Assembly: GCA_043805735.1 (NCBI GenBank)
Contig: JAZDHS010000004.1
Coordinates: 583 to 64,582, forward strand
Source of the DNA: Candidatus Omnitrophota bacterium
Lineage (GTDB): Bacteria > Omnitrophota > Gorgyraeia > JAFGHF01
Reading direction: 5' to 3'
Length of the DNA: 64,000 bases
Part shown: piece by piece, positions 39,387 through 62,050 of the stretch
Numbering within the stretch: the first letter of the stretch is position 1
Layout: each line of letters opens with the position of its first letter
Translations under genes and position numbers: made by a program
The notes under the pieces: model-generated
Databases searched by the model: none
Told to the model about the DNA's origin: nothing
What the model saw: the letters and a program-made list of their open reading frames with translations, nothing else

Positions 39387-39390
39387 CCCT

Positions 39391-40606: not shown

Positions 40607-40635
40607 TTGACACTTGGTGCATTTTGTGCTATACT
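40607..40635 (+). promoter_or_regulatory. Consensus sigma70 promoter (TTGACA-17-TATACT) in the rodA-downstream intergenic region
   Basis: Perfect -35 and near-perfect -10 with 17-nt spacing, read directly from the sequence. Confidence 0.55.
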
Positions 40636-40641
40636 TCCAGT

Positions 40642-40800
40642 GTCATTGACAAAAAGTAACGTTTGAAAAAGGCAAACCATTTGTAAGAATGGGGCGCAAA
40701 GCCACAGGTCCCGTAACGTAACAGGGATAGCTGGGTTGCCAAGCGTAGACAAAGAATATCAACATCCGGCCTTTGGCTTTGCCAAAGGCCTTTTTAATTG
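40642..40800 (+). ncRNA. Candidate ~160-nt small RNA or structured 5' leader ending in an intrinsic terminator
   Basis: Predicted TSS about 7 nt after the -10. The transcript ends with hairpin GGCCTTTGGC-TTT-GCCAAAGGCC followed by TTTTT at about 40769-40800. The listed ORF start at 40736 would have to read through this terminator. Confidence 0.4.
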
Positions 40801-40816: not shown

Positions 40817-41158
40817 ATGATTAAAAGACCAAACAATCCTAACGGTAATGCCCATCGCGTGATTACTTTCTTGACCCGCGATGAAATTGACTTTCTGGAT
40901 AAGATTGGCAAAGACGCCCTTTTTAGCTCCGGGATCAAACTTTCACGCAGTAAAATTATTTCCGCGATGGTTAATGTAATTCGTAAGCTCAATATTCAAG
41001 CCGATGGCCTGCATTCGAAAAAAGAGCTGGAGCATCGCATTATCGAAACGATAAAAAACCTGAATCTGACGCTGGCCGATAAATCCAAAAGGCAGCAGGA
41101 AAACAAAACGCCGCCAGCGAACGAGCATGAGGCTAAGGAACATGAACAAGCTTTTTAA
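40817..41158 (+). CDS. Hypothetical ribbon-helix-helix-like small protein
   Basis: A beta-strand-like RVITFLT followed by two helices (RDEIDFLDKIGKD, SRSKIISAMVNVIRKL) suggests a CopG/Arc-type RHH, with a charged low-complexity C-terminus. The start was moved to the Met after the terminator hairpin. Confidence 0.5.
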   Translation: MIKRPNNPNGNAHRVITFLTRDEIDFLDKIGKDALFSSGIKLSRSKIISAMVNVIRKLNIQADGLHSKKELEHRIIETIKNLNLTLADKSKRQQENKTPPANEHEAKEHEQAF

Positions 41159-42032
41159 TGCGCTTACTATGACTAATCGCGGGATACGCTATAAAATGGC
41201 CATGGCCTTCACGCTGATGTCGGTTATTCCAATGCTGGTATTTGGGTATTTATTCCTGCACTACCTTTTTCCTCGGCTATCGTCTTTTTTGCACATTTCC
41301 TTAGTATTTATTTTTACGATACTTCTAATGATCGCCGGATACTATTTTGCCAAAAAGATTGTCTATCCGGTAATTAAACTCAGCGCTCATGCCCGCGGTA
41401 TTGCCGATGGCAACTTCGATAAAAGATTAGATATGCCGCGTGATGACGAGATCGGCGAATTGGGCAGCACCTTGAATCACCTTTCCTTAAAACTAAAAGA
41501 GAATATTCGGGAAAATACTTTACTGCAGCATAAGACCAGAGAGCTTACCGTGCGCGATGAACTTACCGGTCTCTATAACGAACGCTATATCCGTGAGCGC
41601 TTAGACGAAGAGATTAAGCGGGCGGTGTCCTATCAACGTCCCTGCTGTTTTATGATGATGGAAATAAACCACTTCGTCAGTTTACGCGCAACCAGGGACG
41701 AGAAAGAAGCTGATCAGCTGCTGAAGAAGATCGCGCAAATCTTGCTGGCCGCGACTACGCCAATTGATAAAGTAGCGCGCTTAAACGAGACGCGGTTTAG
41801 CGTTATTTTTCCGGAAAAAAATAAAAAACAATGTCTGGAGGTTACCCAAAATTGCCGAAAAGATATTGCACGCTTGGTCCAAAGCACTTCCGGGTGGGCC
41901 GGATTAAGCATTAGCGCAGGCATTAGTTCGACACCTCTTGACGGAACTACTGTGGCCGAGCTCATCGACCAGGCGCTCTCTTTTATGGAAAGGGCCGGCA
42001 ATGATGGCGAAAATAGCATTATTATTTCCTAA
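41127..42032 (+). CDS. Membrane-anchored HAMP-domain protein with a degenerate GGDEF domain
   Basis: N-terminal TM segments, HAMP (VIKLSAHARGIADGNFDKRLD), then a GGDEF fold (DELTGLYNERYI...SISAGIS...ERAGNDGEN). The catalytic GG(D/E)EF is replaced by NETRF and the DxD metal site is absent. Start may be ATG 41142 or 41169. Confidence 0.75.
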   Translation: MRLRNMNKLFNALTMTNRGIRYKMAMAFTLMSVIPMLVFGYLFLHYLFPRLSSFLHISLVFIFTILLMIAGYYFAKKIVYPVIKLSAHARGIADGNFDKRLDMPRDDEIGELGSTLNHLSLKLKENIRENTLLQHKTRELTVRDELTGLYNERYIRERLDEEIKRAVSYQRPCCFMMMEINHFVSLRATRDEKEADQLLKKIAQILLAATTPIDKVARLNETRFSVIFPEKNKKQCLEVTQNCRKDIARLVQSTSGWAGLSISAGISSTPLDGTTVAELIDQALSFMERAGNDGENSIIIS

Positions 42033-42099
42033 CCGTTAGACCCCAGCTTAAAGGAGTGCTGGGTCTATCCTTTAGGATTAGGAAAAAAGGAGTATCCAT

Positions 42100-43158
42100 A
42101 TGTATGAGATGCAGAAATTACTCAGGATGGTGGTGGAGAAAACGGCGTCCGATTTACATATTACGGCTGGGGCTCCGCCGCAGTTGCGTATCGATGAAGT
42201 GCTGGTTAATGCCGGCGAACAGATCTTGATGCCCGACGATACCAAGAAACTGACCTATAGCCTTTTGGCCCAGGAAGAAATTAAGGAATTCGAGGAGAAT
42301 CTGGAATTGGATTCGTCGTTCGGAATCGAGGGCCTGAGTCGTTTTCGTCTCAATGTCTACCAGCAAAGAGAAGCGGTGGGCTGTGCGATCAGAAGAATTC
42401 CCTTTGAGATTATGACGTTGGAGCAATGCGGCTTACCGGTAAAAATAGTGACGCAGATGTGCCAAAGGACAAAAGGCCTGGTACTGGTAACCGGGGCGAC
42501 GGGAAGCGGAAAATCCACTTCGTTGGCGGGGATGATTAATAAAATTAATCAGGAAAGGCGCTGTCATATTATTACCGTAGAAGATCCGATCGAATATACC
42601 TTTAAGAATTTAAAGTCCTTAATCGAACAGCGCGAAGTCGGCAAAGATACCCATTCCTTTGGCGATTCGTTAAAACATATACTTAGACAGGATCCCGATG
42701 TCATTTTAGTAGGGGAAATGCGCGACTTAGAGACTATCCAGTCGGCGCTGAATATCGCCGAGACCGGCCACCTGGTCTTTGCGACCTTGCATACCTCCGA
42801 TGCGGTTCAGACGGTGAATAGAATCATTGATGTCTTCCCCGCCCATCAGCAGCAACAGGTGCGCACACAGCTATCGTTTGTGCTGTTGGGAATTATGGCC
42901 CAGCAGTTAATACCCCGTCCCGGCGGGGGAAGAATATTGGCAACTGAAATACTAGTGGCCAATCACGCTATTCGCAGCCTGATCCGCGAGGCCAAAACGC
43001 ACCAGGTCTATTCAGTTATTCAAACCGGTCTCAAAGAAGGAATGAGTACGATGAACCAGGCGTTATATGAACTGGTGTTACGTAATATTATTTCACAGGA
43101 CGAGGCGATGCTGCGCACTACCGAACCCAAAGACCTAGAGCGATTGTTTAAAAGCTAA
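42100..43158 (+). CDS. pilT: Type IV pilus retraction ATPase PilT
   Basis: 352 aa secretion ATPase without an N-terminal MshEN domain. Walker A GATGSGKST, Asp/His boxes, and a PilT-type C-terminus (AIRSLIREAK). Confidence 0.9.
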   Translation: MYEMQKLLRMVVEKTASDLHITAGAPPQLRIDEVLVNAGEQILMPDDTKKLTYSLLAQEEIKEFEENLELDSSFGIEGLSRFRLNVYQQREAVGCAIRRIPFEIMTLEQCGLPVKIVTQMCQRTKGLVLVTGATGSGKSTSLAGMINKINQERRCHIITVEDPIEYTFKNLKSLIEQREVGKDTHSFGDSLKHILRQDPDVILVGEMRDLETIQSALNIAETGHLVFATLHTSDAVQTVNRIIDVFPAHQQQQVRTQLSFVLLGIMAQQLIPRPGGGRILATEILVANHAIRSLIREAKTHQVYSVIQTGLKEGMSTMNQALYELVLRNIISQDEAMLRTTEPKDLERLFKS

Positions 43159-43173
43159 AGGAATAAAAAGCGT

Positions 43174-43635
43174 ATGGAAGCACGTAAAGACCCACATGCA
43201 TTTCGCGAGCAGCTCGGCGAGCTGCTCTTACAAAGAGGCGTGATTAATTCCGAGCAGCTCAAGCATGCCCTGGAGCTGCAGAGTGAGGGTAATATGCTCT
43301 TAGGGGAGATATTGTCTGAGCTTGGCTATGCCTCCGAGGAAGATATTGTCCAGGCGCTAGCGTTACAACATGATTTCCCGTATTTGCCATTGGCCAATTA
43401 TGAGGTTGAGGCGGAAATTATCAAGTTAATTCCGGAGGAATTAGCGCGTCGCTACCATATTCTACCCGTAGATAAAATGGGCGATATCTTAACCGTGGTT
43501 ACCGATAATCCGCTGGAGCGCTCATTTTTCAAAGAGATCGAAGCGCTGACAAAATGTAAAATTGAAATATTTGTCTCAACGTCTAGAGAAATCAAAGAGG
43601 CGATTGAGCGCTATTATAGCGAAAAGAAAAAGTAA
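43174..43635 (+). CDS. Standalone MshEN / T2SSE_N-domain protein (candidate c-di-GMP receptor)
   Basis: 153 aa made only of the GspE/PilB N-terminal fold. It carries a tandem 24-aa motif, QLGELLLQRGVINSEQLKHALELQ, a 5-aa spacer, then LLGEILSELGYASEEDIVQALALQ. This closely matches the published MshEN c-di-GMP-binding consensus RLGxx(L/V/I)(L/V/I)xxG(L/V/I)(L/V/I)xxxxLxxxLxxQ. Confidence 0.75.
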   Translation: MEARKDPHAFREQLGELLLQRGVINSEQLKHALELQSEGNMLLGEILSELGYASEEDIVQALALQHDFPYLPLANYEVEAEIIKLIPEELARRYHILPVDKMGDILTVVTDNPLERSFFKEIEALTKCKIEIFVSTSREIKEAIERYYSEKKK

Positions 43636-43652
43636 AAAAGGTTAAACGTACG

Positions 43653-45365
43653 ATGCCTAGATCATTAAAAGAACAATTAGTGGCTATCCTTACCGAGAAC
43701 AAACTGCTTTCCCAAACGCAGCTGGAGCAGGCGCTGAAGCTGCAAAAGGAAAAAGGGGGACGCCTGAGCAACATTCTAATATCTTTAAAATTTATTCAGG
43801 AAAAAGATTTAATGCTGGCCTTAAGCAAAAGCTTGAATATTCCTCCGATTAATTTGCAAAAGATTGAGATTAAGCCCGAGGTGATTAAAGTTATTTCTGA
43901 AAAAGTAGCCCGGCATTATCAGCTCATCCCGATTGCGAAGATGTCCAATAGCCTAACCGTAGCGGTGAGCGACCCCTTGAATATTTTCGCGCTTGACGAT
44001 ATCCGGGCGCTGACAAACTTCAAAATTAAATCGGTGCTCAGCACCGAAGAAGACATTAAACATGCGATTAATAAATATTATTCCAAGGATGCGCTAGATA
44101 TTGTCAAGGATGTAATCAAAGATAAAGAGGCAAAGATAGAGACCATTACCCAACAAGAAGCAACGGTGGATACCAAGGCGCTTCTGGAGATGATTAATGA
44201 GGCGCCGATCGTCAAGATTACCAACATGATTTTGCAGGAAGGGATTAAGAGGAAATCCAGCGATATCTTAGTTGAGCCCTTGGAAAAGACGATGCAGATA
44301 CGCTATCGTGTCGATGGTATTTTGGAGCTTGGCGAGGCTCCGCCACGGAGCATGCATGATGCCATTGTGACCAGGATTAAAGTTATGTCGCGTCTGGATG
44401 TGGCCGAACACCGCCTGCCGCAAGATGGAAGATTCAAAGTCCAGCTGCCCGGAAAAGAAGTCGATTTTCGCGTCTCCGTGCTTCCTTCGAGTTTTGGCGA
44501 AAAACTGGCCCTGCGTATTTTGGATAAGAGCACGCTGATGTTAGACGTCGATAAGTTGGGGCTGGAAGAACAACCGCTCTCAGTGCTGAAAAAATGCGCC
44601 CAGCGTCCACATGGGATGATTTTAGTTTGCGGCCCGACCGGCTGTGGCAAAACCACGACCCTTTATTCTGTGCTTAAATACATTGATTCTATTGAGGATA
44701 ACTTAGTAACCGTAGAAGATCCGATCGAATATCTTTTGGATGGAATCAACCAGGTAACGGCCGCTCCGGAAATCGGGCTGACCTTTGCCGCGGCGCTGCG
44801 TTCTATTTTACGCCAGGACCCGGATATTATCATGGTCGGAGAAATCCGAGATTTTGAAACTGTCGATATCGCGATTAAGGCCGCGCTGACCGGCCATTTG
44901 GTCTTAAGCACCTTGCATACTACCGATGCGCCGGGATCGCTGGTGCGCCTGGCGAATATGGGTGTGGAACCGTTTTTGATTACCGCGTCCTGTCTGATGG
45001 TGGGCGCGCAGCGGTTAGTCCGCGTGCTTTGTCCGGAATGCAAGGAAACATATCTGGCAGTGCCGGAGCTAAAGAAAAAGTTGGGAATAAAAAACGACAA
45101 AGAAATTACTTTCACCCGGCCCAAAGGCTGTGCTAAATGCGGCAACAGCGGTTACAAGGGCCGCATTGCCATCATGGAGTCATTGGAGATTACCGCTCAG
45201 ATTAAGGAGTTGATTTTACAGAAAGCTCCCGAGGCACATATCAAGAATGCTGCCCGCAAGGAAGGTATGCGCACGCTGCGGGAGAATGGTTTGGCGATAG
45301 CAATGAAAGGAATTACATCAGTCGAAGAAGTGCTCAGGGTTACCGCTACGGACGAAGAGATATAA
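43653..45365 (+). CDS. pilB: Type IV pilus assembly ATPase PilB/GspE family (paralogue 1)
   Basis: 570 aa with an N-terminal T2SSE_N-like domain, Walker A GPTGCGKTTT, tetracysteine CPEC...CAKC, and Asp/His boxes. Confidence 0.9.
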   Translation: MPRSLKEQLVAILTENKLLSQTQLEQALKLQKEKGGRLSNILISLKFIQEKDLMLALSKSLNIPPINLQKIEIKPEVIKVISEKVARHYQLIPIAKMSNSLTVAVSDPLNIFALDDIRALTNFKIKSVLSTEEDIKHAINKYYSKDALDIVKDVIKDKEAKIETITQQEATVDTKALLEMINEAPIVKITNMILQEGIKRKSSDILVEPLEKTMQIRYRVDGILELGEAPPRSMHDAIVTRIKVMSRLDVAEHRLPQDGRFKVQLPGKEVDFRVSVLPSSFGEKLALRILDKSTLMLDVDKLGLEEQPLSVLKKCAQRPHGMILVCGPTGCGKTTTLYSVLKYIDSIEDNLVTVEDPIEYLLDGINQVTAAPEIGLTFAAALRSILRQDPDIIMVGEIRDFETVDIAIKAALTGHLVLSTLHTTDAPGSLVRLANMGVEPFLITASCLMVGAQRLVRVLCPECKETYLAVPELKKKLGIKNDKEITFTRPKGCAKCGNSGYKGRIAIMESLEITAQIKELILQKAPEAHIKNAARKEGMRTLRENGLAIAMKGITSVEEVLRVTATDEEI

Positions 45366-45379
45366 TAATCGGGTTTTGC

Positions 45380-47110
45380 GTGGAGGTTGAAACTAAAGTG
45401 CCCAGGCTTTTGACGTTAAAAAAGAAGCTCAATGAGATCCTGCTGGAAAATAAATTAATCAGCGCCAAGGACCTTGAAAAAGCCCTAAGTATCCAGAAGG
45501 AAAAAGGGGGGCAGTTGAGCAAGATTCTTGTTGAGCAGAAAATGATTTCCCAACAGGATTTGATGGTTTGCCTGGGTACACAGCTGGGAGTGCCGCCAAT
45601 CAATCTGGCCAGGTATAAAATCGATCCCGAAGTAGTTAAATTCATCCCCGAACGTATTGCCCGCCATTATATGGTCATACCAATATCCAAAATTAAGAAT
45701 GTGATTAGCGTGGCCATGGCCGATCCGTTGAATATTTACGCCTTAGACGATATCAAGGTCTTAACTAAATTAGAGGTCCAGACGGTCATTACTACGCCCG
45801 ACGATATTATGCAGGCAATTGACAAATATTATAAGGGTAAAATACAAGATATGGCCGATATTATCCAAAAGGCGCAGGAAACGGTGGAACTGCAGACTGT
45901 GGAAGAAGGGCCAATGCCGGGCGATATTGAAGAGCTGACTAAGGCCAGTGGAGAGGCGCCGTTGATTCAATTAGTCAATGTCGTGATTCACGAGGCCATC
46001 AAAAGTCGGGCCAGCGATATTCATATTGAACCGTTTCAGGAGCGCGTGCGTATCCGCTACCGTATTGACGGAATCTTGCATGATTCCTTTAACTTCCCCA
46101 CGAAAATCAAAAATGCCTTACTTACACGGATAAAAATTATGTCTAATTTAGACATCACCCAAAGACGTATTCCCCAGGACGGCCGGTTTAAAGTGAAGGT
46201 CGAAAATAAAGAAGTCGATTTCCGCGTCTCGGTGCTGCCTACCGCTTTCGGCGGAAAAATTGTGCTTCGGGCTCTAGATAAAGCCAACCTATCTATCGGT
46301 CTGGACCAATTAGGATTTTCAGCGCACACTTTAGTTAAATTTAAGGAAGCAATTGCTAAACCCTACGGCATGATGCTACTCACTGGGCCTACCGGTTGCG
46401 GTAAGTCCACTACCCTTTATTCCATTCTCAACCAGCTTAATTCCAACGATCGCAATATCGTTACTATTGAAGACCCAATAGAATATCAGGTGGAGCGGAT
46501 TACCCAAATTGCGGTCAAGCCCGAGATCGGCTTAACCTTTGCCAGCGGATTGCGCTCAATATTGCGCCAGAGTCCGGATGTAATCATGGTCGGTGAGATC
46601 CGCGACGGTGAAACCGCCGATATCGCCATTAAGGCGTCGCTGACCGGAGAACTAGTGTTGAGCACGCTGCATACCAACGATGCGGCTTCGGCAATTACCC
46701 GGCTGATCGATATGGGCGTGGAACCGTTTTTAATTGCCTCGTCCGTAATTATGGTGGCCGCGCAGCGGCTTTGCCGGCGGGTTTGCCCGCATTGTAAAGA
46801 GCCTTACGAGGTCGCCAAGTCCGTTCTGGATAGCCTGGAAATTTCCGCCCAAAAAAATACACTGTTTTATCATGGTAAAGGCTGCCCCCATTGCAATCAT
46901 ACCGGCTACTATGGACGGATGGGGACATTGGAGATTTTAACTGTTGACGACGCGATCAGAGAAATGATTATTAAGGGGGCCTCAAGCACACATATTAAAG
47001 ACTATGCCCGTAAGCACGGCATGAGGACGCTGCGTGAAAACGGTCTGGAAAAATTTATACAAGGCGAAACAACGCTGGAAGAAGTCTTGCGGATGACCGC
47101 TGAGGAATAA
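45380..47110 (+). CDS. pilB: Type IV pilus assembly ATPase PilB/GspE family (paralogue 2)
   Basis: 576 aa with the same architecture (GPTGCGKSTT; CPHC...CPHC). Its N-domain resembles that of paralogue 1. The start is GTG 45380 or GTG 45398 after GGAGG. Confidence 0.9.
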   Translation: MEVETKVPRLLTLKKKLNEILLENKLISAKDLEKALSIQKEKGGQLSKILVEQKMISQQDLMVCLGTQLGVPPINLARYKIDPEVVKFIPERIARHYMVIPISKIKNVISVAMADPLNIYALDDIKVLTKLEVQTVITTPDDIMQAIDKYYKGKIQDMADIIQKAQETVELQTVEEGPMPGDIEELTKASGEAPLIQLVNVVIHEAIKSRASDIHIEPFQERVRIRYRIDGILHDSFNFPTKIKNALLTRIKIMSNLDITQRRIPQDGRFKVKVENKEVDFRVSVLPTAFGGKIVLRALDKANLSIGLDQLGFSAHTLVKFKEAIAKPYGMMLLTGPTGCGKSTTLYSILNQLNSNDRNIVTIEDPIEYQVERITQIAVKPEIGLTFASGLRSILRQSPDVIMVGEIRDGETADIAIKASLTGELVLSTLHTNDAASAITRLIDMGVEPFLIASSVIMVAAQRLCRRVCPHCKEPYEVAKSVLDSLEISAQKNTLFYHGKGCPHCNHTGYYGRMGTLEILTVDDAIREMIIKGASSTHIKDYARKHGMRTLRENGLEKFIQGETTLEEVLRMTAEE

Positions 47111-47127
47111 TAAAAGGAGAGGCCGTT

Positions 47128-48330
47128 ATGCCTTACTTTAAATATATCGCCAAGGATCAGGAAGGTAAAACCATTAACGCCACCCTGGAGTCCAAAGACA
47201 AAAACGGGGTCGTGGAATTGTTGCGCAAGAGAGACATGGTTATCCTCTCTATAGATGAAACGAAAGATAAACCCTTTAAGGTAAAAACCAGTGGCAGCGT
47301 CCAGATCGATGACTTGGTAATCTTTTCCCGCCAATTGGCCACGATGGTCGACAGCGGAATTCCCTTGGTTCAGGCCCTGGATGTATTGCAGGAACAAATC
47401 CAGAAGTCTTACTTTAAGGGCGTTATCGGCAGTTTACGCGATGGTATCGAGACGGGCAGCAGCCTTTCCGATGCGATGGCCCAGCACCAGCGGGTTTTTT
47501 CCGACCTGTTCGTGAATATGGTGCGTGCCGGTGAATCCAGCGGTATGCTTGATGATATTATGGAGCGCGTTGCCGATTATATCGAGAAAACCGCGGCCCT
47601 GCAGCGTAAAGTAAAATCCAGTTTAATTTATCCGGCGGTAGTCGTGTCTATGGCGATTGGAATTACGGTGATTCTACTGATCAAGGTAGTACCGACATTT
47701 AAAGGGATTTTTGATAGCCTGGGGGGAGAGTTGCCGATGTTAACCCAGATTCTAATTAATGTTAGTGATTTTTTACAGCATTACTTCATGTTTATTGTCG
47801 TCAGCCTGTTTGTATTGGGAGTGACAGTGGAGCGGCTTTCCCGCACCGCTAAAGGCCGGCTTTTTATTGACCGGCTGTTATTACGTTTGCCGGTTTTTGG
47901 TTTACTCTTGCGCAAAGTGGCGATTGCCCGCTTTTCGCGGACTTTGTCTACTTTAGTCAAAAGTGGTGTGCCCATTTTGAATTCCTTAGAGATTGTTTCC
48001 GCCACCGCTGGCAATAAAGTAATCCAAATGGCCGTGGAGCAGGTGCGCAATAGTATCCGCGAGGGTGAAAACATTTCCGAACCCCTATCGCGTAGTGGTA
48101 TTTTTCCTCCGATGGTCACCAGGATGATCGGAGTTGGGGAGCAAACTGGTGAATTGGAAAAAATGCTTTCTAAAATTGCCGATTTCTACGAAGAACAGGT
48201 CGATGTGGCAGTCAGCAGCATGACCTCACTTATCGAACCCCTTATCATTGTTGTACTTGGGGTGGTTGTCGGTGGCATTGTCGCCGCGATGTTCTTACCC
48301 ATCTTTAAGATTACCGAGCTGATCAAATAG
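47128..48330 (+). CDS. pilC: Type IV pilus inner-membrane platform protein PilC (GspF family)
   Basis: 400 aa with two GspF repeats and three TM segments, directly after the pilB genes. Confidence 0.9.
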   Translation: MPYFKYIAKDQEGKTINATLESKDKNGVVELLRKRDMVILSIDETKDKPFKVKTSGSVQIDDLVIFSRQLATMVDSGIPLVQALDVLQEQIQKSYFKGVIGSLRDGIETGSSLSDAMAQHQRVFSDLFVNMVRAGESSGMLDDIMERVADYIEKTAALQRKVKSSLIYPAVVVSMAIGITVILLIKVVPTFKGIFDSLGGELPMLTQILINVSDFLQHYFMFIVVSLFVLGVTVERLSRTAKGRLFIDRLLLRLPVFGLLLRKVAIARFSRTLSTLVKSGVPILNSLEIVSATAGNKVIQMAVEQVRNSIREGENISEPLSRSGIFPPMVTRMIGVGEQTGELEKMLSKIADFYEEQVDVAVSSMTSLIEPLIIVVLGVVVGGIVAAMFLPIFKITELIK

Positions 48331-48518
48331 CCAAAAACCCCTTGACAAGAGCGGGGTTGAGTGATAAGCTTTATAGTAGGCGCTTGATGAGCGCTAAAGC
48401 TGAGTTTGGCTTTTTAGGGTTTACGGCGGTGAATCATCTTGATCTATTTTTCGCGCCAATGCCCGTTAAAGCTGAAACAGTTTAACCCATATGAGGAAGA
48501 AGGGAGGTTAGAACAAAC

Positions 48519-49040
48519 ATGTTAAGGTACAATCGCAAAGGCTTTACATTAGTTGAAATCATGATTGTAGTTGCTATCATAGCTCTCTTAGCCGCGATTG
48601 CCATACCGAACTTGCTGCGCGCGCGTTTGAATGCGAATGAAAATGCGACCGTAAATAGTTTAAAGACTCTTTGCGCCGCAATGAATTCATTTGCCGGCAC
48701 TAACATCCAATCTGGTGTACCGACCTATCCGGCCGGGCTGGATAACCTGACTCCCAACGTGATTCTCTCTCCTGAGCCACCCTATCTAGATGTGGCCTGG
48801 AGTGACGCCGCTGGCCCTGTGCAGCGGTCCGGTTACTCCTACACCTATGCCGGGTCAGATGTAGATGGAAATGGGACCACCGAGAGGTTCTGGATTGACG
48901 CTATTCCGCTGTCATATCAAACCTCAGGTGTACGCAGTTTCTACATTGATGAAGGCGGTGTGGTGTATGGCGGTGATAACGCTGGTGCTGCTACCGGTGT
49001 TTATGGCACCCCCGGAGCGCCATATGTAGCTACGGAATAA
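48519..49040 (+). CDS. pilA: Type IVa pilin (prepilin with N-terminal methylation motif)
   Basis: Leader MLRYNRKG followed by FTLVEIMIVVAIIALLAAIAIP, with Glu5. 173 aa, one Cys, no C-terminal disulfide loop. Confidence 0.85.
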   Translation: MLRYNRKGFTLVEIMIVVAIIALLAAIAIPNLLRARLNANENATVNSLKTLCAAMNSFAGTNIQSGVPTYPAGLDNLTPNVILSPEPPYLDVAWSDAAGPVQRSGYSYTYAGSDVDGNGTTERFWIDAIPLSYQTSGVRSFYIDEGGVVYGGDNAGAATGVYGTPGAPYVATE

Positions 49041-49063
49041 TTAAGAGCAAGACAATCAGATGT

Positions 49064-49100
49064 AAAAAGGCGGTGGATGTTTCCACCGCCTTTTTATTTT
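49064..49100 (+). terminator. Rho-independent terminator after pilA1
   Basis: GGCGGTGGA-TGTT-TCCACCGCC hairpin followed by TTTTTATTTT. Confidence 0.8.
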
Positions 49101-49112
49101 TACAATTAATGC

Positions 49113-49142
49113 TTGATTTTTTACGGGATTCAGGTATTATAA
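49113..49142 (+). promoter_or_regulatory. Sigma70-like promoter (TTGATT-17/18-TATTAT/TATAAT) for the second pilin
   Basis: Read directly from the sequence between the terminator and pilA2. Confidence 0.45.
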
Positions 49143-49160
49143 TACTAACAATAACATAAT

Positions 49161-49694
49161 ATGGCCTATTATATTAAGATTAATAAAGAAAAAGGGTTTA
49201 GTTTAATAGAAATATTGATTGTTTCGGCAATTTTGGTCATTATGTCCACGATTGCTATACCGGCTTTACTGCGCCAAAGGCTTAATGCTAACGAGAGGGC
49301 AACGATAAAAAGTTTAAAAACACTCTACCTTTCTTTGAATTCTTTTGCGGCCAGAAATATCCAGGGTGGTATTGCGATCTTTCCCGCCAACCTTGATGCG
49401 CTGACTGCCAACCAGATTGCCTCTCCTGAGCCACCATATCTGGATGTAGCCTGGAGTGATGCCGCTGGCCAAATATTCAGATCCGGTTATCAATATAGCT
49501 ATCGTCCCTTTGATTCCGCTGACCCCGATGGTACCGCCGATCGGTTCTGGATCGACGCCATTCCTGCTGGCTATCAAAGCTCAGGTGTGCGTAGTTTCTA
49601 TGTTGACGAGGGCGGGGTAGTCTATGGTTTTGATAATGCCGGTATAGCCACGGGCGCTTATGGTATTCCGGCAGGTTGGGTTGCTGCGGAGTAA
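49161..49694 (+). CDS. pilA: Type IVa pilin paralogue (longer 12-aa leader)
   Basis: Leader MAYYIKINKEKG followed by FSLIEILIVSAILVIMSTIAIP. The C-terminal half is highly similar to pilA1 (SPEPPYLDVAWSDAAG, SGVRSFYxDEGGVVYG). Confidence 0.85.
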   Translation: MAYYIKINKEKGFSLIEILIVSAILVIMSTIAIPALLRQRLNANERATIKSLKTLYLSLNSFAARNIQGGIAIFPANLDALTANQIASPEPPYLDVAWSDAAGQIFRSGYQYSYRPFDSADPDGTADRFWIDAIPAGYQSSGVRSFYVDEGGVVYGFDNAGIATGAYGIPAGWVAAE

Positions 49695-49703
49695 ATAAAC
49701 CTG

Positions 49704-50669
49704 ATGAGTAAAGAAAAAATTATAATCGGTCTGGATATTGAGAAACATTCCCTTAACCTGGTGAAGTTGGCCAAAGGGGCTAGCGGTGAAATCAAACTGC
49801 TGGATTTCGCTAGCGTATCCTTAAGCCCGGAATTGGCCCCAGCGGAAAAGGCGCGCCAGCTGGAAAACTTTGTGCGCGCCAAGGGGATTAACGCCCTGGC
49901 CGTGAACGTCGGCATCTCCGGGGAAACGGTAGTAGTCAGGTATATTGATTTACCGAAGATGAAAAAAAACGAAATCTCCCAGGCCCTGGCCTATGAAGCC
50001 CAGCAGTATATTCCGTTTAAAATGGAAGAAGTAATTTTTGATTTTCATCCGCTCAACGTTGCCCCCACGGGCAATAACCGGATGAAGGTGCTTTTGGTCG
50101 CCGCCAAAAAACAAGCGATTCTCAATTTCATCAAGTCAATTCAGCAAGCCGGCCTTAGGCCTAATCTCATTGACGTCAATTCGTTTGCGCTGATTAACTG
50201 TTTCACCGTCAACGGGCCAAAAGTAAAAGAAAGCGATATCTACGCTGTCTTGAATCTCGAGTTTGACGTGGTCAATATTAATATTCTTCAGGGTGGGTTG
50301 CCTTTTTTTACCCGTGATATTTCTTTGGAAGAGGCCAATGCGATCTCGGCCGCAAAAGGCGAAGCAAAGGCGGAACTGTTTGCGCCGGCCATGCCGCTCT
50401 TAGCCAGTTTAATCCGTGAGGTCAAAATTTCAATTGATTATTTTGAGAGCGAATTTGAAAAACAGGTGCCAATATTATATTTAAGCGGAGCAGGCGCGAA
50501 GTTTCCGGAGCTGGTGCAGGCTTTTTCCAGCCAACTCGGCCGGGAAGTTTTGCTTTGGGATCCCTTGCGTACCTTTGCGGTTGATGCCGCGCTGGGTGAC
50601 AGGCAGTTACTAAAAGATACTTCTATACAATTAGCCTTGGCCAGTGGCTTGGCGTTACGGGGAATATGA
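49704..50669 (+). CDS. pilM: Type IV pilus assembly protein PilM
   Basis: Actin-like ATPase fold of about 320 aa, the typical PilM size. Confidence 0.8.
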   Translation: MSKEKIIIGLDIEKHSLNLVKLAKGASGEIKLLDFASVSLSPELAPAEKARQLENFVRAKGINALAVNVGISGETVVVRYIDLPKMKKNEISQALAYEAQQYIPFKMEEVIFDFHPLNVAPTGNNRMKVLLVAAKKQAILNFIKSIQQAGLRPNLIDVNSFALINCFTVNGPKVKESDIYAVLNLEFDVVNINILQGGLPFFTRDISLEEANAISAAKGEAKAELFAPAMPLLASLIREVKISIDYFESEFEKQVPILYLSGAGAKFPELVQAFSSQLGREVLLWDPLRTFAVDAALGDRQLLKDTSIQLALASGLALRGI

Positions 50670-51154
50670 GCGTGGAGAGAAGCGGTTTCACCTTAATTGA
50701 ATTGATGATTGCTGCCGCGGTTTCATCGGTGGCGCTATTGGGCATTTTGGGTGTATTTAGCGGTTGTTTCGGTGTTGACGAATCGGCGGGACAGCTAACT
50801 ATTGCCGTCAACGGCGCACGTTATAAGATTGAAGAAATGCGTACCGAACGCGATATGGGCAACCCCCGTGCCGCCGGGCATTATAACGAAACCATCCCCA
50901 ATTGTTCCTTAGCGCACAGCGTGGCGATTGATATTATTGACGACGGATCGGACCCGGATGGCGTTAGCGAAGCGACGTTATACTGGATAAGCGTTTCGGT
51001 CACCTGGATGACGCGTGGCGGAAGAATCATCGGCGAAGATGACGGTACCGGAGGCGGCGCTGCGCTTGACGGCATCCTTAATGGCGGCGAAGATAGCAAT
51101 AATAATAATTTACTTGATTCGCCGGCGCAGATAGTTACTTTAATGAGGCTCTAG
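50666..51154 (+). CDS. Minor pilin / pseudopilin with prepilin-type N-terminus
   Basis: SGFTLIELMIAAAV class III signal at the N-terminus, GspH/PilV-like size. Confidence 0.75.
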   Translation: MSVERSGFTLIELMIAAAVSSVALLGILGVFSGCFGVDESAGQLTIAVNGARYKIEEMRTERDMGNPRAAGHYNETIPNCSLAHSVAIDIIDDGSDPDGVSEATLYWISVSVTWMTRGGRIIGEDDGTGGGAALDGILNGGEDSNNNNLLDSPAQIVTLMRL

Positions 51155-51156
51155 AG

Positions 51157-51693
51157 ATGCGCGAACGCGGTTTTACTTTAATCGAACTGATGATTGTATT
51201 AACGGTATTTGGTTTAATTCTTGGTGCGATCTTTGCCGTAATGTATGTAGGCAAGCAGTCCTGGTCGCAAGGCGGGACAAAGGTGGAAATACAACAAGAA
51301 GCGCGCCGGGCAATGGAAGAGATAGTGCGCGAACTGCGCGAAAGTGCCCAGGATGTTGTGACTGGCGTGCTTGCTGACGGAACTGCTTATAATGCGATTA
51401 CCTTTCGTATGCCCGATGATATCGATGGCGACGGAGATGTATTGGACGCTAACGGCGTTATTGAGTGGGGAACTCCGATTTCCTTTTCTGTAGGCGGTAT
51501 AAACAATGAGCAGCTTTTACGCACCAGCGCGGGCAATACCACGGTTCTTGGCAATCATGTGGTCAGCCTGCAGTTTACTCGCAATGCAGCTACTCCCAAT
51601 GTTATCGAAATCGACATCCAAACCCAACGGACTTCCCAGGAACAAAGGGTTTTTCAGGCGGCGTTAAGCTCAAAGGTGACACTGAGGAACTAA
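51157..51693 (+). CDS. Minor pilin (PilW/GspJ-like) with prepilin-type N-terminus
   Basis: RGFTLIELMIVLTVFGL class III signal at the N-terminus. Confidence 0.75.
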   Translation: MRERGFTLIELMIVLTVFGLILGAIFAVMYVGKQSWSQGGTKVEIQQEARRAMEEIVRELRESAQDVVTGVLADGTAYNAITFRMPDDIDGDGDVLDANGVIEWGTPISFSVGGINNEQLLRTSAGNTTVLGNHVVSLQFTRNAATPNVIEIDIQTQRTSQEQRVFQAALSSKVTLRN

Positions 51694-52739
51694 TGCGCCA
51701 AGAAAAAAAGCTAAAGCGTTTTCTGTTTGTGAAAAACAAAAAAGGTATTGTGCTGGTTGCCTGTTATTTTGTTATTGCTACGCTGGCGGTATTGGGTAGT
51801 GCATTTCTGGCCCGGAGCGTAAGCGAACAAAGGTTTGCCGAAAGGCAGCGCTCTTCGACACAGGCATTTTATTACGCCGAAGCCGGCCTGGAGAGGGCGG
51901 CGTGGTACCTCACCGATGTGGCGCCCGATGGCTCAAATGATGGTAACTGGCGTACTAGCAATTATCCGGCGCAGCCAGGAACAGGCGTAAATGACCCGCG
52001 GCAGGAAACATGCTCGGATGGTAGTTATATTATTTGGGTAGAGAACGAAGACAGTGATGTGCGTATCTATGCCCGTGGCACATCCGGAGGTATTACTCGA
52101 GAGCTTACTCAGCGGATTTCGGTGGATTCCATTCCTGCGCCTTTTGAATATGCCGTCTATGTCGGCGGAGCAATTAACGATTCCGGGGCGACTAATCTCA
52201 CGGTCAATGGCGATACACAAGAAGATGGTCCGGAATTGCCAACTGTAGATATGGCTTATTTCAGCGGTTTAGCTATCCCGAGCCAAAGGATTACCGGAAA
52301 CTATACTTTTGTCGCCGGTACCTATAACGGTGTTTGGTACATTGACGGCAATGTGAATATCGAAAGCAATGTGACGATTAACGGTTCGATTATTTCCACG
52401 GGTCATATTTCCACGGCCGGTTTTAACACGATTACGGTCAATGCTACCTTGCCGCAGCCGGCTTTGATCGCCCAGGGTAACTTTGATTTTAAAGACAGCT
52501 CGGTGATTACGGTCAACGGCATTATTTATGTCGGCGCAGATATGACTGGAAACTTTCTCTTGCAGCAGGCGGAAAACATTACCTTTAACGGCACGCTGAT
52601 TGTCGCCGGAAATCTCAATATCCAAAATAGCAATATGGTGGCCATTACTTATGATGAAGAGGCCATGGAAGATCCGCCGGTAGGTTTTTCCGGTTCGGGT
52701 GAAGTGCGACTTGTGGAACATGATTGGCAGGAATTTTAA
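51693..52739 (+). CDS. PilX-like pilus assembly/tip protein
   Basis: N-terminal TM segment plus the PilX_N-like motif (SSTQAFYYAEAGLERAAWYL). The C-terminal ~200 aa is N/T/G-rich repeats suggesting a beta-helix. Confidence 0.65.
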   Translation: MRQEKKLKRFLFVKNKKGIVLVACYFVIATLAVLGSAFLARSVSEQRFAERQRSSTQAFYYAEAGLERAAWYLTDVAPDGSNDGNWRTSNYPAQPGTGVNDPRQETCSDGSYIIWVENEDSDVRIYARGTSGGITRELTQRISVDSIPAPFEYAVYVGGAINDSGATNLTVNGDTQEDGPELPTVDMAYFSGLAIPSQRITGNYTFVAGTYNGVWYIDGNVNIESNVTINGSIISTGHISTAGFNTITVNATLPQPALIAQGNFDFKDSSVITVNGIIYVGADMTGNFLLQQAENITFNGTLIVAGNLNIQNSNMVAITYDEEAMEDPPVGFSGSGEVRLVEHDWQEF

Positions 52740-52756
52740 CCAGAGATGCGCTTAAG

Positions 52757-53377
52757 ATGATTGAAATTAATCTTTTACCCACGGAATTACGCGAAAAGAA
52801 GACCTTGGCCGTGCCGCAGATATTTCAGGCTAAGCTTGTGGGGATAGTTGTGCTTTGCATTTTAGCTACGCATCTTTTGCTGATTGTGGTGGCTGCAATG
52901 AGCGCAAAGCGGTTGGCTCACTTTAAGGTGAAACTGCAGACGCTTACTCCTAAGGGCAAAGAGGTCGCGCAACTCCAGGTAGAACTTAACGAAGCCAATA
53001 AAAAGATTCCGATGATTGAGCAGTTGATGCAAAATCGCATACTTTGGTCAAAAAAGCTCAGCCGGGTAAATGACCTAATGGTGCCTCGCGTGTGGTTGAG
53101 TGAGTTTTCTCTCAGAGAAGAGAAAGAAGAATTAGAGAACAAGGGTACGGGAAAACTGCTTATTATCCGCGGTAGTGCCGCTTCGCGTACCAAAGATGAG
53201 CCGGCTCTGGTCGGTATGTTTATGCAGAACTTGAAAGACGACCCAGTTTTTTCGGAAGATTTTTCGGATATAGAATTAGGCCCGATCCGCAAAAGGTTGA
53301 TTGGGGACACCGAGGTCATGGATTTTAATTTATATTGCCGGATTAAACCGGAACGCATAAAGGCCTTATCACGATGA
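52757..53377 (+). CDS. pilN: Type IV pilus assembly protein PilN
   Basis: Starts with the PilM-binding motif MIEINLLP, then a single TM segment. Met 52757 preferred over the listed 52724. Confidence 0.8.
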   Translation: MIEINLLPTELREKKTLAVPQIFQAKLVGIVVLCILATHLLLIVVAAMSAKRLAHFKVKLQTLTPKGKEVAQLQVELNEANKKIPMIEQLMQNRILWSKKLSRVNDLMVPRVWLSEFSLREEKEELENKGTGKLLIIRGSAASRTKDEPALVGMFMQNLKDDPVFSEDFSDIELGPIRKRLIGDTEVMDFNLYCRIKPERIKALSR

Positions 53378-53970
53378 ACCCAGGCGCATCTTCTGCAGAA
53401 CTAGGTAGCCAAAAAATTAAGGAAATACTTTCCGATAAAAATACGCAGAACGCCATTCTTATCGTTTTTTTGGTATTGAGTTATATGCTTGTCCTTTTCT
53501 TGCCCAAGGCCAAGGCGATAGTGCGTAATGCTTCACAGGCAGCAAAGGTAAAGGTCGAAATTGTAAAATTGGAGAAGGATTGGGCCGGTAGTAGCGCCAT
53601 TGAACAAAGGATCAACCAACTCAACGAAAAAATTGATTTTTACGAAAAAGAACTGCCCGGAGAAAAAGAAGTCCCAGCGGTATTGCGCTACCTTTCGGAA
53701 TCGGCGCGCAAGCTCAATGTGAAAATTACCGAAATTAAGCCGGCTGATCAGAATGAAATTCCGGGAGAAGAAAGCTCAGCAATTTATTTTAGCGTGCCGA
53801 TTTTGCTGAAAGCGGAATGTGGTTATCATCAGTTGGGCCGCTTTATTAGCGATTTGGAGAGCGCCGACCGGTTTATGAAAATTAGTGATATTAAAATCAT
53901 GCAAAATTCAACTGACCCCGTAAGCCACTATGTGCGTCTGACGGTGGTTACCTATGTGCTAAGACAATGA
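53374..53970 (+). CDS. pilO: Type IV pilus assembly protein PilO
   Basis: Bitopic protein with TM segment, coiled coil and periplasmic domain, in canonical position. Confidence 0.7.
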   Translation: MNPGASSAELGSQKIKEILSDKNTQNAILIVFLVLSYMLVLFLPKAKAIVRNASQAAKVKVEIVKLEKDWAGSSAIEQRINQLNEKIDFYEKELPGEKEVPAVLRYLSESARKLNVKITEIKPADQNEIPGEESSAIYFSVPILLKAECGYHQLGRFISDLESADRFMKISDIKIMQNSTDPVSHYVRLTVVTYVLRQ

Positions 53971-54347
53971 TCCGCCAACGCGTTTTTATTTTTTTAGGAA
54001 TTTTTTTAATGCCTTGCCTGGCCTTTAGGTTTTGCGTGGCAGAAGAAGATCTGTTTGCCTATAAGGACAGTGGAAAGCGCGATCCTTTTATAGCTTTAGT
54101 TAGCGAACAGGGCCGCTACATCGCCGAAAGCGGAGAAATGTACTCATCAAATGAGTTGCGGGTGAGCGGTATTTTGTGGGATCCCGAAGGTAAAAGTTCG
54201 GCGTTAATTAATGACCAGATGGTGGCCGAAGGCGAAACATTTTACGGTTTCCTGATTAAAGAAATTCGTCAAGACCATGTTACTGTTTCCCGTGATGGCC
54301 AAGACTATACCATCTGGGTTATCGGAGAAAAGGAGGATCATCAATGA
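53967..54347 (+). CDS. pilP: Type IV pilus assembly lipoprotein PilP-like
   Basis: Small secreted or lipoprotein with a beta-rich C-terminus, between pilO and pilQ. Confidence 0.6.
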   Translation: MIRQRVFIFLGIFLMPCLAFRFCVAEEDLFAYKDSGKRDPFIALVSEQGRYIAESGEMYSSNELRVSGILWDPEGKSSALINDQMVAEGETFYGFLIKEIRQDHVTVSRDGQDYTIWVIGEKEDHQ

Positions 54348-55855
54348 AAACGAAATGGGTAAAAATGCGGGCGGTATTTTTACTCTTAGGCGTAGGGATA
54401 TTCCTGGCGGTTTACGGGCAGACATTTCAGCCGGTGTTGCAGGCGCAACAGGAACAGGCGGTAACGGAATCAGAGGAGCCCATAGCGCTTTTGCCGCCAG
54501 CGGCAGAGCAGGCGCAAGAACCGCTATCAGCGGAGTCGGCGCAGGCGCTGGAAGAAGCTAGCACAACTAAGCCGGAGAATATCACGGTTGATTTTAAGGA
54601 TGCCGATATCCACGATGTGCTCAAGATTATCGCTTATAAAAGCGGGATAAATATTGTTGCCGGTAAAGATGTGATTGGCACGGTGACTATTCGCCTGGTC
54701 GATGTGCCTTGGGAGCGGGCCTTAGAAGTGATTCTGAAAAATGCCGGATTTGTCTATGAACGCGATCAGGATATCATTCGGGTAACCACGATTGACAACT
54801 TAAGCAAGGAAGAACTATCTACTGAAATCTTCATTCTTAATTATGCCGATGCCGAGCAAATTTCCGAATCGATTAAATCGATGCTTACCTCCCGGGGCAG
54901 TATTAAATTTGACGAGCGGACTAATCAGGTCGTGGTTACCGATGTACCGACCAATTTGTATAAAATCGGTAAGGTCGTGGAGAAGCTCGATCAGCGGACT
55001 CATCAGGTAGTCATTGAGGCGAAGGTAATTGAAACGACCTTAGCTGATGACGAAAATTTAGGGATTAATTGGACCGCGCAGGTCTCGGCAAACGGCGCTA
55101 CCCGGCCGCTAATGTTTCCTTGGGCTTACTATAAATCGTATGGCAAGACTGGATTAGAATATTTCCCGCAAGTAGATACTACCGCGGATGAGTTTGCGGC
55201 CAGCCAGTCCAACGGTTTTCCCTATGCGCCTTACGCCAATCAAACCGAAGGCGGAGATTTTCGCTTTGGGACTTTGAGCTTTGAGAATTTACAAATGATC
55301 CTCAATCTATTAAGGACGCGCAGCGATACCAAAACTCTTTCTAATCCCAGTATAGTTACATTAAATAATAAAGAGGCGGTCATTCATGTCGGTGAAGATT
55401 TCGGTGTGCCTACCTACGAACGCAATACTTCTACGGGAACGATGGAGATTACCGGCTATACCACCAGAAAGGTCGGCGTAAAGCTAACCGTTACGCCCCA
55501 TGTGAACGCCGAAAAAGAAATTGTGATTGATATGCATCCTGAAGTGAGCGCTTTTGTGCGCAATCAAATTTTTGGCGATATTGAGGTTCCCGTTTTTTCG
55601 GTGCGCGAAGCCACTACGCAGATTATGGTCAAGGATGGGGACACGATTGTTATCGGTGAGCTGATCTCCGATACTAACATTGATGCGGTACGTAAAATAC
55701 CGATCCTGGGTGATATCCCTTTAATCGGGCATATCTTCCGCAGTACCACCAAAGGCGTGGATAAAACTGATTTAATCATTTTTATTACTGTGCGCCTAAT
55801 TGATACCGAAGGCAAAAAAATTGCCCAACAACAGACGAAAGCCGAAGAAAAATGA
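54344..55855 (+). CDS. pilQ: Type IV pilus secretin PilQ
   Basis: Signal peptide, N-terminal secretin_N-like region, and C-terminal secretin domain (VIETTLADDENLGINW...IPILGDIPLIGHIFR). Confidence 0.9.
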   Translation: MKTKWVKMRAVFLLLGVGIFLAVYGQTFQPVLQAQQEQAVTESEEPIALLPPAAEQAQEPLSAESAQALEEASTTKPENITVDFKDADIHDVLKIIAYKSGINIVAGKDVIGTVTIRLVDVPWERALEVILKNAGFVYERDQDIIRVTTIDNLSKEELSTEIFILNYADAEQISESIKSMLTSRGSIKFDERTNQVVVTDVPTNLYKIGKVVEKLDQRTHQVVIEAKVIETTLADDENLGINWTAQVSANGATRPLMFPWAYYKSYGKTGLEYFPQVDTTADEFAASQSNGFPYAPYANQTEGGDFRFGTLSFENLQMILNLLRTRSDTKTLSNPSIVTLNNKEAVIHVGEDFGVPTYERNTSTGTMEITGYTTRKVGVKLTVTPHVNAEKEIVIDMHPEVSAFVRNQIFGDIEVPVFSVREATTQIMVKDGDTIVIGELISDTNIDAVRKIPILGDIPLIGHIFRSTTKGVDKTDLIIFITVRLIDTEGKKIAQQQTKAEEK

Positions 55856-57366: not shown

Positions 57367-57370
57367 ACAC

Positions 57371-57399
57371 TTGACAGCGGCGAAGTTATGTGGTAGCAT
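57371..57399 (+). promoter_or_regulatory. Sigma70-like promoter (TTGACA-17-TAGCAT) for rplU-rpmA
   Basis: Read directly from the sequence upstream of rplU. Confidence 0.45.
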
Positions 57400-57437
57400 A
57401 TTTCTTCCATTTTGAGTTGAACAAGGAGACCAAGCCA

Positions 57438-57752: not shown

Positions 57753-57767
57753 AAATGAGGATCAGAA

Positions 57768-58986: not shown

Positions 58987-58994
58987 GATAAACG

Positions 58995-60143: not shown

Positions 60144-60146
60144 GCG

Positions 60147-61403: not shown

Positions 61404-61405
61404 CA

Positions 61406-61987: not shown

Positions 61988-61992
61988 AATTA

Positions 61993-62021: not shown

Positions 62022-62050
62022 AAAACGGTTTAACATCTTAAAGGAGGTGG

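Follow-up and report, generated by a model that had tools for sequence, protein, structure and literature searches.

A type IVa pilus gene cluster typical of Omnitrophota, with a putative c-di-GMP riboswitch on its motor operon and a predicted free-standing MshEN receptor

Results

The Motor Operon of a Predicted Type IVa Pilus Locus

We analyzed a 64,000-nt stretch of contig JAZDHS010000004.1 from a Candidatus Omnitrophota bacterium (hereafter, the window), whose pilus genes make up what is, by predicted gene content, a single-locus type IVa pilus (T4aP) system. Pfam, NCBIfam, and hhalign located every gene named in a preliminary description of the stretch, all on the + strand and tightly packed, and its reading as one nearly gap-free T4aP locus was borne out. 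Just 5′ of 41127, where that description started, lie a promoter-like site, a riboswitch, a terminator, and a 113-aa open reading frame (ORF) that it did not list. The operon that they head holds the motor genes. Its leader contains a predicted cyclic di-GMP (c-di-GMP) aptamer together with a terminator, and it encodes a free MshEN protein with intact predicted contact residues beside two PilB ATPases that appear to be without them. Its features are listed below.

40607..40635, + strand: sigma-70-like promoter, TTGACA-17-TATACT (11/12, with TG); consensus match only
40662..40744, + strand: aptamer of the c-di-GMP-I class (GEMM-I); Rfam RF03167, 69.5 bits (gathering 59), E 2e-14, full length
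40768..40795, + strand: intrinsic terminator, the presumed expression platform; 10-bp stem GGCCTTTGGC/GCCAAAGGCC, loop TTT, then TTTTT
40817..41158, + strand: conserved 113-aa protein, which opens the riboswitch-controlled operon; 88 homologue clusters
41127..42032, + strand: membrane protein with HAMP and degenerate GGDEF domains, 301 aa; NETRF for GGDEF, no RxxD
42100..43158, + strand: PilT retraction ATPase; TIGR01420, 465 bits (cutoff 319)
43174..43635, + strand: standalone MshEN protein, 153 aa, predicted c-di-GMP receptor; PF05157, E 7e-18
43653..45365, + strand: PilB1 extension ATPase, canonical catalytic motifs; MshEN motif glycines replaced by V and S
45380..47110, + strand: PilB2, anciently diverged paralogue; motif glycines replaced by N and S, His box TGEL
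47128..48330, + strand: PilC platform protein; PF00482

The Leader of the Motor Operon

The aptamer was the sole regulatory RNA in an Rfam scan of the whole window. It is placed 27 nt after the promoter-like site and 23 nt before the GC-rich terminator hairpin, with the start codon of the first gene at 40817. The homologues of the 113-aa protein all open at the methionine of MIK(K/R)P; a program-made ORF list begins instead at a TTG inside the aptamer. The homologue clusters of this protein are all "hypothetical" and all from Omnitrophota, and it has no match in Pfam or NCBIfam. A ribbon-helix-helix regulator, guessed from a strand-helix-helix pattern, was discarded, as the AlphaFold2 (AF2) model (pLDDT 78) shows helices only, and Foldseek against the PDB gave no match to this model below E 0.7.

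For comparison with relatives, one genome per species was scanned with an alignment of the standalone MshEN protein. Relatives were found in 337 genomes, and the best 80 were taken for locus comparison (loci are numbered L001 onward). Virtually all of these 80 come from Omnitrophota, Velamenicoccus archaeovorus LiM among them; some are labeled Planctomycetia in automatic submissions. Riboswitches in the relatives' loci were surveyed with Rfam and with a core-sequence regular expression. An aptamer at the equivalent position was found in L006, L007, and L011, as canonical RF01051 at 50–60 bits (threshold 35), and, by the regular expression, in L008. The same aptamer class lies upstream of pilA instead in seven loci (L064, L069, and L072 by Rfam; L044, L063, L077, and L081 by the core-sequence search), a position at which the Rfam scan found no riboswitch in the window (5′ of pilA1). 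A TTGACA...TATACT pair 5′ of the aptamer and a hairpin with a T-run 3′ of it accompany 7/7 inspected sequences, the window included; among the relatives, the promoter pair is present in L007, L011, L064, L072, and L069. Directly 5′ of the riboswitch of L006 (L006:6680-6740) is what looks to be the first half of another aptamer (TTTGAAAAAGGCAAACC...GGGGAGCCAC), which may be a decayed tandem copy.

A Standalone MshEN Protein with Conserved Predicted c-di-GMP Contacts

The gene at 43174..43635 encodes an MshEN domain and no ATPase. The NF053729 model of the c-di-GMP motif scores 58 bits in it (cutoff 38), and it contains two 24-residue motifs separated by a spacer of exactly five residues: QLGELLLQRGVINSEQLKHALELQ-SEGNM-LLGEILSELGYASEEDIVQALALQ. 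A word-limited search gave a family of 69 clusters, mostly 57–71% identical and all of about 150 aa. The motif pattern (Leu2, Gly3, Leu17, Leu21, and Gln24 of each motif) is conserved in 84–88 of 89 homologues. The N-domains of both PilBs are homologous to this protein, and the same positions could be compared in all three families:

Standalone MshEN, n = 89: Gly3 kept in 84 (motif I) and 85 (motif II); Gln24 kept in 85 (motif I) and 87 (motif II)
PilB1, n = 74: Gly3 kept in 0 (motif I) and 2 (motif II); replaced by T/I/Q/K/V in motif I and mostly by S in motif II
PilB2, n = 59: Gly3 kept in 0 (motif I) and 2 (motif II); replaced by I/N/V/L/M in motif I and by R/S/K/E in motif II

Substitutions of these glycines have been characterized in Vibrio cholerae, where VcMshEN no longer binds c-di-GMP when it has G11L and binds it 72-fold more weakly with G40I (Wang 2016, Suppl. 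Table 1). By this residue pattern, the same domain is present three times side by side, and the predicted ligand-binding residues survive in the free copy alone, which seems to have taken over c-di-GMP sensing from both PilBs.

One residue departs from the described motif. The Arg at position 1 is missing from the standalone protein, where it is Q in motif I (73/89) and L in motif II (82/89). The GSPII-B domain of Thermus thermophilus PilF has K and L at this position and binds c-di-GMP at 6 nM (PMC11731258); Arg at position 1 is therefore not strictly required.

An AF2 model of the standalone protein, built with 27 homologues (pLDDT 87), has the PF05157 fold, with a four-helix N-terminal subdomain and an N1 subdomain. 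Its top Foldseek match in the PDB is 5HTL, a c-di-GMP-bound MshEN (E 7e-11, TM 0.74/0.80); the GSPII domains of PilF and the N-domain of Xanthomonas citri PilB rank next. An invariant PYLPL.NY segment falls outside the nucleotide motif. As to the origin of the protein, its profile scores the PilB N-domains of the same cluster and that of Geobacter PilB nearly alike, at 130–133 and 123 bits.

The Two PilB ATPases Belong to Ancient Groups

Both PilBs score best with the PilB model TIGR02538 (PF00437 family); their 643 and 650 bits are slightly below its cutoff of 675.65, yet it is the top model for each. PilB1 and PilB2 sequences from 58 genomes form two groups, with 61% identity within groups and 45% between them, and for 114/116 proteins the nearest neighbor is in the same group. 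Judged by these identities, the two are ancient orthologous groups derived from an old duplication within the lineage, not recent copies. Both groups retain the Walker A and B motifs, the Asp-box region, and the zinc-binding Cys pairs. In the PilB2 group, Q or E takes the place of the first His-box histidine (TGHL to TGQL/TGEL) and the conserved GEK segment contains Q or G, while PilB1 keeps both the His and GEK. Neither protein is a TfpB (NF053534, 470 and 486 bits; cutoff 850). In L003 (L003:1540-4926), the two PilBs are 66% identical, compared with about 45% elsewhere, and their N-domains are almost identical, which suggests gene conversion between the tandem copies.

Pilin and Assembly Genes, and the Flanks of the Cluster

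PilC is followed by the pilins and the assembly genes:

48519..49040, + strand: pilA1, monocistronic; probable major pilin gene, preceded by a strong ribosome-binding site (GGGAGG)
49065..49102, + strand: intrinsic terminator after pilA1; GGCGGTGGA-TGTT-TCCACCGCC, then TTTTTATTTTT; 9-bp GC stem and T-run, fold z = -5.85
49161..49694, + strand: pilA2, pilin paralogue, 65% identical to pilA1; starts the downstream operon
49704..50669, + strand: PilM; TIGR01175, 157 bits (cutoff 133)
50666..52739, + strand: three minor-pilin-like genes (162, 178, and 348 aa); N_methyl, N_methyl, and PilX_N
52757..53377, + strand: PilN-like; no Pfam match, hhalign 96% against a bona fide PF05137 PilN
53374..53970, + strand: PilO; PF04350
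53967..54347, + strand: PilP-like; no Pfam match, hhalign 91% against a bona fide PF04351 PilP, Y..GKRDPF motif in both
54344..55855, + strand: PilQ secretin with STN/N0, one Secretin_N, and the secretin domain (PF00263), without AMIN

The PilN and PilP references for the profile comparisons were bona fide proteins from another contig. The secretin scores 275.6 bits with TIGR02515, narrowly under the cutoff of 284, and T4aP PilQ is its best-scoring model. Class III signal peptides were recognized in the four proteins with N_methyl (KG|FTLVE, KG|FSLIE, SG|FTLIE, and RG|FTLIE); the fifth pilin-like protein, of 348 aa, has PilX_N alone and is without Glu5. At the sequence level, the gene set is that of a complete T4aP except for PilD. 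The preliminary description had placed PilD outside the window, and we found none by tblastn with one query or by Pfam on 20 upstream ORFs (149–944 aa), a search that did not take in every ORF.

Sub-threshold matches to the Akkermansia pilus families Amuc_1101 and Amuc_1098 were obtained for PilM, the PilN-like protein (weak, Amuc_1101), and the secretin, and one to Verrucomicrobia "Verru_Chthon cassette" proteins for the minor pilin at 51157-51693. These similarities hint at a common pilus lineage of the Planctomycetes-Verrucomicrobia-Chlamydiae (PVC) type.

Intergenic gaps in the cluster range from -32 to +67 nt, with the exception of 188 nt 5′ of pilA1 and 120 nt 5′ of pilA2. Three transcription units would fit this layout. 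The first would comprise the promoter, the c-di-GMP-I riboswitch, its terminator, the small ORF, the degenerate GGDEF sensor, PilT, the standalone MshEN protein, PilB1, PilB2, and PilC. The second would be the monocistronic pilA1, which with its own terminator and strong ribosome-binding site is the probable major pilin gene. The third would contain pilA2, pilM, the three minor pilins, and pilNOPQ, and would read into the RNase G gene (rng), whose start overlaps the PilQ stop codon by 4 nt. Of the two signals that the preliminary description had placed between the pilin genes, the one after pilA1 is a textbook intrinsic terminator; for the promoter before pilA2, there is a weak -35/-10-like pair only. 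No sigma-54 promoter was found before either pilin.

The window as a whole is one long + strand run from mraZ/mraW through cell-division and murein genes, mreB-mreC, PBP2, and RodA to the pil region, which is followed in order by RNase G, L21, L27, Obg, ProB, ProA, NadD, and RsfS. The immediate flanks of the cluster, mreB-mreC-PBP2-RodA at 37656-40527 and RNase G to RsfS at 55852-62570, recur throughout the phylum; by this synteny, the cluster therefore belongs to the conserved backbone of the chromosome rather than to an island. Farther upstream, the window contains a tRNA gene (107-181), a XerC/D-type tyrosine recombinase (5104-5997), and a DHH/DHHA1 phosphoesterase (8003-8956), the last sharing its family with NrnA-type nanoRNases, which can degrade pGpG.

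The GGDEF and HD-GYP Genes

In the GGDEF protein of the window, the active-site motif is replaced by NETRF and the RxxD inhibitory site (I-site) by TPID. Close relatives have SESQF or SDHQF in place of GGDEF. Most genomes have G-D-[DN]-E-F, with [ST]E[IV]D in the RxxD position, and a canonical active site was present in none of those examined. The window protein is also shorter, 301 aa compared with about 475 aa in relatives (L001:344-1768, L002:804-2225), an in-frame stretch of about 170 residues (coiled coil and GAF) having been lost. By these motifs, it is best seen as a signaling, sensor, or scaffold protein and not as a cyclase. The orthologue in L049, L050 (V. archaeovorus LiM), and L054 has a fully degenerate site (EDGVF/EEGVF) and an intact RxxD-like REID, and may be a c-di-GMP binder with the I-site only.

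A HAMP-GAF-HD-GYP gene starts at 62617 and runs off the window. It has the HDLGK and HHERYDGSGYP motifs and an HD_5 domain, and its product looks functional by these features. Because eight housekeeping genes (rng, rplU, rpmA, obg, proB, proA, nadD, and rsfS) intervene between it and the pil cluster, it is probably a neighbor unlinked to the pilus system. In the relative L004, a CNNM/CBS gene, rather than an HD-GYP gene, follows nadD.

The preliminary description had the pilus wired to c-di-GMP modules, these two genes among them. A link to c-di-GMP does appear to be real, by way of the riboswitch and the free MshEN protein, but the GGDEF protein that was cited for it is degenerate and has no I-site, and the HD-GYP gene stands behind eight others. 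The strong evidence for c-di-GMP is the riboswitch and the motif contrast between MshEN and the PilBs, neither of which the preliminary description had mentioned; the GGDEF and HD-GYP genes are the weak part.

Gene Order across Omnitrophota

ORFs of the relatives' loci were labeled by BLAST against the window proteins. The order MshEN-PilB-PilB was found in 56/60 loci with enough downstream sequence. A GGDEF gene lies at most two genes upstream in 59 of the 71 loci with enough upstream sequence, usually right after PBP2-RodA; PilT stands between GGDEF and MshEN in nine loci only. Two relatives have an order identical to that of the window from RodA to Obg: a metagenome-assembled genome (61% PilM identity) and the complete 1.55-Mb CP070837.1 (52%). 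In both, the order is RodA, small ORF, HAMP-GAF-GGDEF, PilT, MshEN, PilB, PilB, PilC, pilin(s), and PilM, then minor pilins, PilN, PilO, PilP-like, secretin, RNase G, L21, L27, and Obg. Taken together, RodA–GGDEF–(PilT)–MshEN–PilB–PilB–PilC is seen in about 80 Omnitrophota species genomes, that of V. archaeovorus among them, and the full pilus gene order of the window, including its minor-pilin position, in at least four related genomes.

The second half of the cluster is arranged differently among relatives. The window, L001, L002, and L011 have their minor pilins between pilM and pilN; pilM is directly followed by pilN in L003, L004, L018, L029, L050 (V. archaeovorus), L068, and L069; and the minor pilins come directly after the pilin in L063, L064, L072, L081, and L084. 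As far as gene order tells, the motor half of the cluster is constant throughout the phylum and the second half varies, with at least three layouts; within this variable region, a minor-pilin block placed between pilM and pilN characterizes one subclade.

In five loci (L015, L017, L022, L025, and L026), GGDEF-MshEN-PilB-PilB-PilC is followed by a 16S rRNA gene (at about 16.6–16.8 kb in locus coordinates); L017 and L022 reach further and have tRNAs and a 23S gene after it. With an rRNA operon next to the motor module, the pilin and pilMNOPQ genes of these genomes would therefore be elsewhere.

Close PilM homologues all come from Omnitrophota. The cluster is best read as vertically inherited in this Omnitrophota bacterium and is the standard T4aP cluster of the phylum. 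The gene order, which had first been taken for a non-canonical oddity, does not hold up as one, given the two relatives with the identical order and the recurrence of the motor module. By synteny the arrangement is widespread in the lineage; it is not well described there, the Omnitrophota papers that we read giving only the presence of T4aP.

Discussion

We favor, with somewhat better than even confidence, a reading in which this predicted locus is a lineage-typical T4aP cluster, its motor operon headed by a riboswitch and its free MshEN receptor acting in trans. At the level of transcription, the riboswitch would set how much of the motor module is transcribed in response to c-di-GMP. At the level of protein, the free MshEN would bind c-di-GMP and signal to PilB1 and PilB2, or to their docking site on PilM or PilC, in trans; the PilBs' own receptor domains no longer have the glycines that binding requires. 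The two PilBs would probably divide pilus extension between them, and the GGDEF protein would act in signaling or as a scaffold. We also put forward, as a tentative proposal that we regard as possible though on balance doubtful, that c-di-GMP sensing is split from the extension motor: the free MshEN would decide which PilB paralogue, or PilT, engages the platform, and the riboswitch would dose the motor/receptor module in some clades and the pilin in others.

Several points weigh against the favored reading. Many Omnitrophota clusters, that of V. archaeovorus among them, have no such riboswitch, and the window shows no active diguanylate cyclase. The NCBIfam model of the c-di-GMP motif is above its cutoff of 38 in PilB1 and PilB2 too (45 and 46 bits), so the profile method does not call the PilBs degenerate; moreover, the Ser that PilB1 commonly has at position 3 of motif II is a small residue and may be tolerated. 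As to the aptamer, the top Rfam model is the "GGC" variant. In the cmscan alignment, read by eye, the window aptamer has AAGGCAAACC, CGC-A-AAGCC, and UUGCC, with A where the RF03167 consensus has G, a pattern that would fit the canonical signature. Because the differing position has A (CGC-A-AA) and not G (CGC-G-AA), the aptamer is tentatively read as a canonical c-di-GMP sensor; in the numbering of the Vc2 structure, the ligand-contacting nucleotides are G20, A47, and C92. Finally, bases in the 5′ part of the terminator stem could form an anti-terminator with the aptamer core (AAAGGC and GCAAAGCC) at -6 to -11 kcal/mol, but this pairing is no better than in shuffled controls in the window (63/200) and L007 (54/200), and it is significant only in L011 and L006. 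As to the direction of the switch, we lean toward termination upon c-di-GMP binding.

The standalone MshEN protein could have a different role, as an adaptor or decoy resembling the PilB N1 domain that competes with the PilB N-domains for PilM or PilC, with c-di-GMP entering through the riboswitch only. Its homology to the GspL-docking N1 domain of GspE and to the PilZ-binding N-domain of PilB (fold matches 2BH1, 4PHT, and 7LKM) fits such a role, as does the absence of Arg at position 1 from both motifs, and the invariant PYLPL.NY outside the nucleotide motif suggests a conserved protein interface. We nevertheless think it unlikely, since the c-di-GMP contacts (Gly3, Gln24, and the Leu cluster) are near-invariant in the standalone protein alone, which is hard to explain without a ligand, and since the GSPII-B domain of PilF shows that the position-1 Arg is dispensable. 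Another idea is that the locus encodes a pseudopilus like that of a type II secretion system (T2SS), or a DNA-uptake pilus, instead of a motility or adhesion T4aP, with the two ATPases assigned to separate tasks within one machine, such as secretion and pilus extension. PilB2 is just over the GspE equivalog cutoff (633 vs 630) and PilC at that of GspF (423.6 vs 424); the order of ATPase, platform, pilin, minor pilins, and L/M-like genes resembles gspE-F-G-H-I-J-K-L-M; the 348-aa PilX_N protein is without Glu5, as is GspK; and the short secretin is devoid of AMIN domains. Such a machine is quite improbable here, given a PilT retraction ATPase within the operon, a PilM that passes the T4aP PilM model, and PilB and PilQ for which T4aP models score best; TXSScan-based work, too, classes such clusters as T4aP, expressed in V. 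archaeovorus (PMC10066038).

There is finally the interpretation of the preliminary description, an unusual and possibly recent rearrangement wiring the pilus to nearby GGDEF and HD-GYP enzymes. Both enzyme families are indeed present in the window, and the minor pilins do interrupt pilMNOPQ. It is very improbable all the same: the order is kept across species down to 52% PilM identity and its motor half throughout the phylum, which refutes uniqueness, the GGDEF site is catalytically degenerate in every relative examined, and the eight intervening genes, together with the relative that has a CNNM/CBS gene in the HD-GYP position, set the phosphodiesterase apart.

In Myxococcus xanthus, Geobacter, and Thermus, pilB, pilT, pilC, pilA, and pilMNOPQ are found in single-locus T4aP clusters. 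The Omnitrophota cluster is alike in being one co-directional locus with the ATPases, platform, pilin, PilMNOPQ, and secretin, and some relatives (L003) also have PilS-PilR genes at the same place. It differs by the tandem PilB pair, the separate MshEN gene, the lack of PilD in the locus, and the position of the cluster between rodA and rng, and the subclade of the window differs further by the minor pilins between pilM and pilN. A class II c-di-GMP riboswitch is found upstream of the type IV pilin gene pilA1 in Clostridioides difficile. Both systems have a c-di-GMP aptamer and a terminator in the leader of a pilus gene, and several Omnitrophota also have theirs upstream of pilA, whereas the window aptamer is of class I and stands on the motor/receptor operon, not on the pilin.

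The MshEN protein shares with V. cholerae MshE and T. thermophilus PilF GSPII-B (PMC5013675, PMC11731258) the fold, the two 24-residue motifs, the five-residue spacer, and the Gly/Leu/Gln contacts. In those proteins, however, the domain is fused to the ATPase that it regulates, whereas here it is a free 153-aa protein adjoining ATPases with degenerate copies. Pseudomonas aeruginosa PA3740, which has MshEN and a divergent T2SSE_N1 and no ATPase and is linked to surface motility (Wang 2016, Suppl. Table 4), is a precedent for a small MshEN-type c-di-GMP binder of this kind, the likeness being the shared domain. The logic is also that of the X. citri FimX-PilZ-PilB system (PMC8389850; PDB 7LKM), in which a separate receptor controls a PilB with a non-binding N-domain; the receptor families differ (degenerate EAL/GGDEF and PilZ there, MshEN here), and genes for PilZ and FimX are absent from the Omnitrophota cluster. 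Acinetobacter baylyi likewise runs a single T4aP machine with two distinct ATPases of the PilB family (PilB and TfpB; PMC11656802), but the Omnitrophota paralogues are adjacent, stem from an old duplication within the lineage, and neither is a TfpB.

Omnitrophota are uncultured, mostly ultra-small, and thought to be predators or parasites; T4aP, one of a handful of traits common to nearly all of them, are expressed in V. archaeovorus (PMC10066038). The Omnitrophota papers that we read report the presence of T4aP and contain nothing on c-di-GMP, MshEN, or paired PilBs. Of note here are the putative riboswitch on the motor operon, the predicted receptor as a gene of its own, and the conserved PilB pair. 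The locus gives three testable handles, namely the riboswitch, a purifiable 153-aa receptor, and the PilB pair, which bears on why certain pili have two extension motors, and the three adjacent MshEN copies are a natural experiment on this domain. If our reading is true, the cluster would represent an undescribed two-layer, trans-acting control of a type IV pilus in ultra-small, probably host-dependent cells, in which pili are thought to be central.

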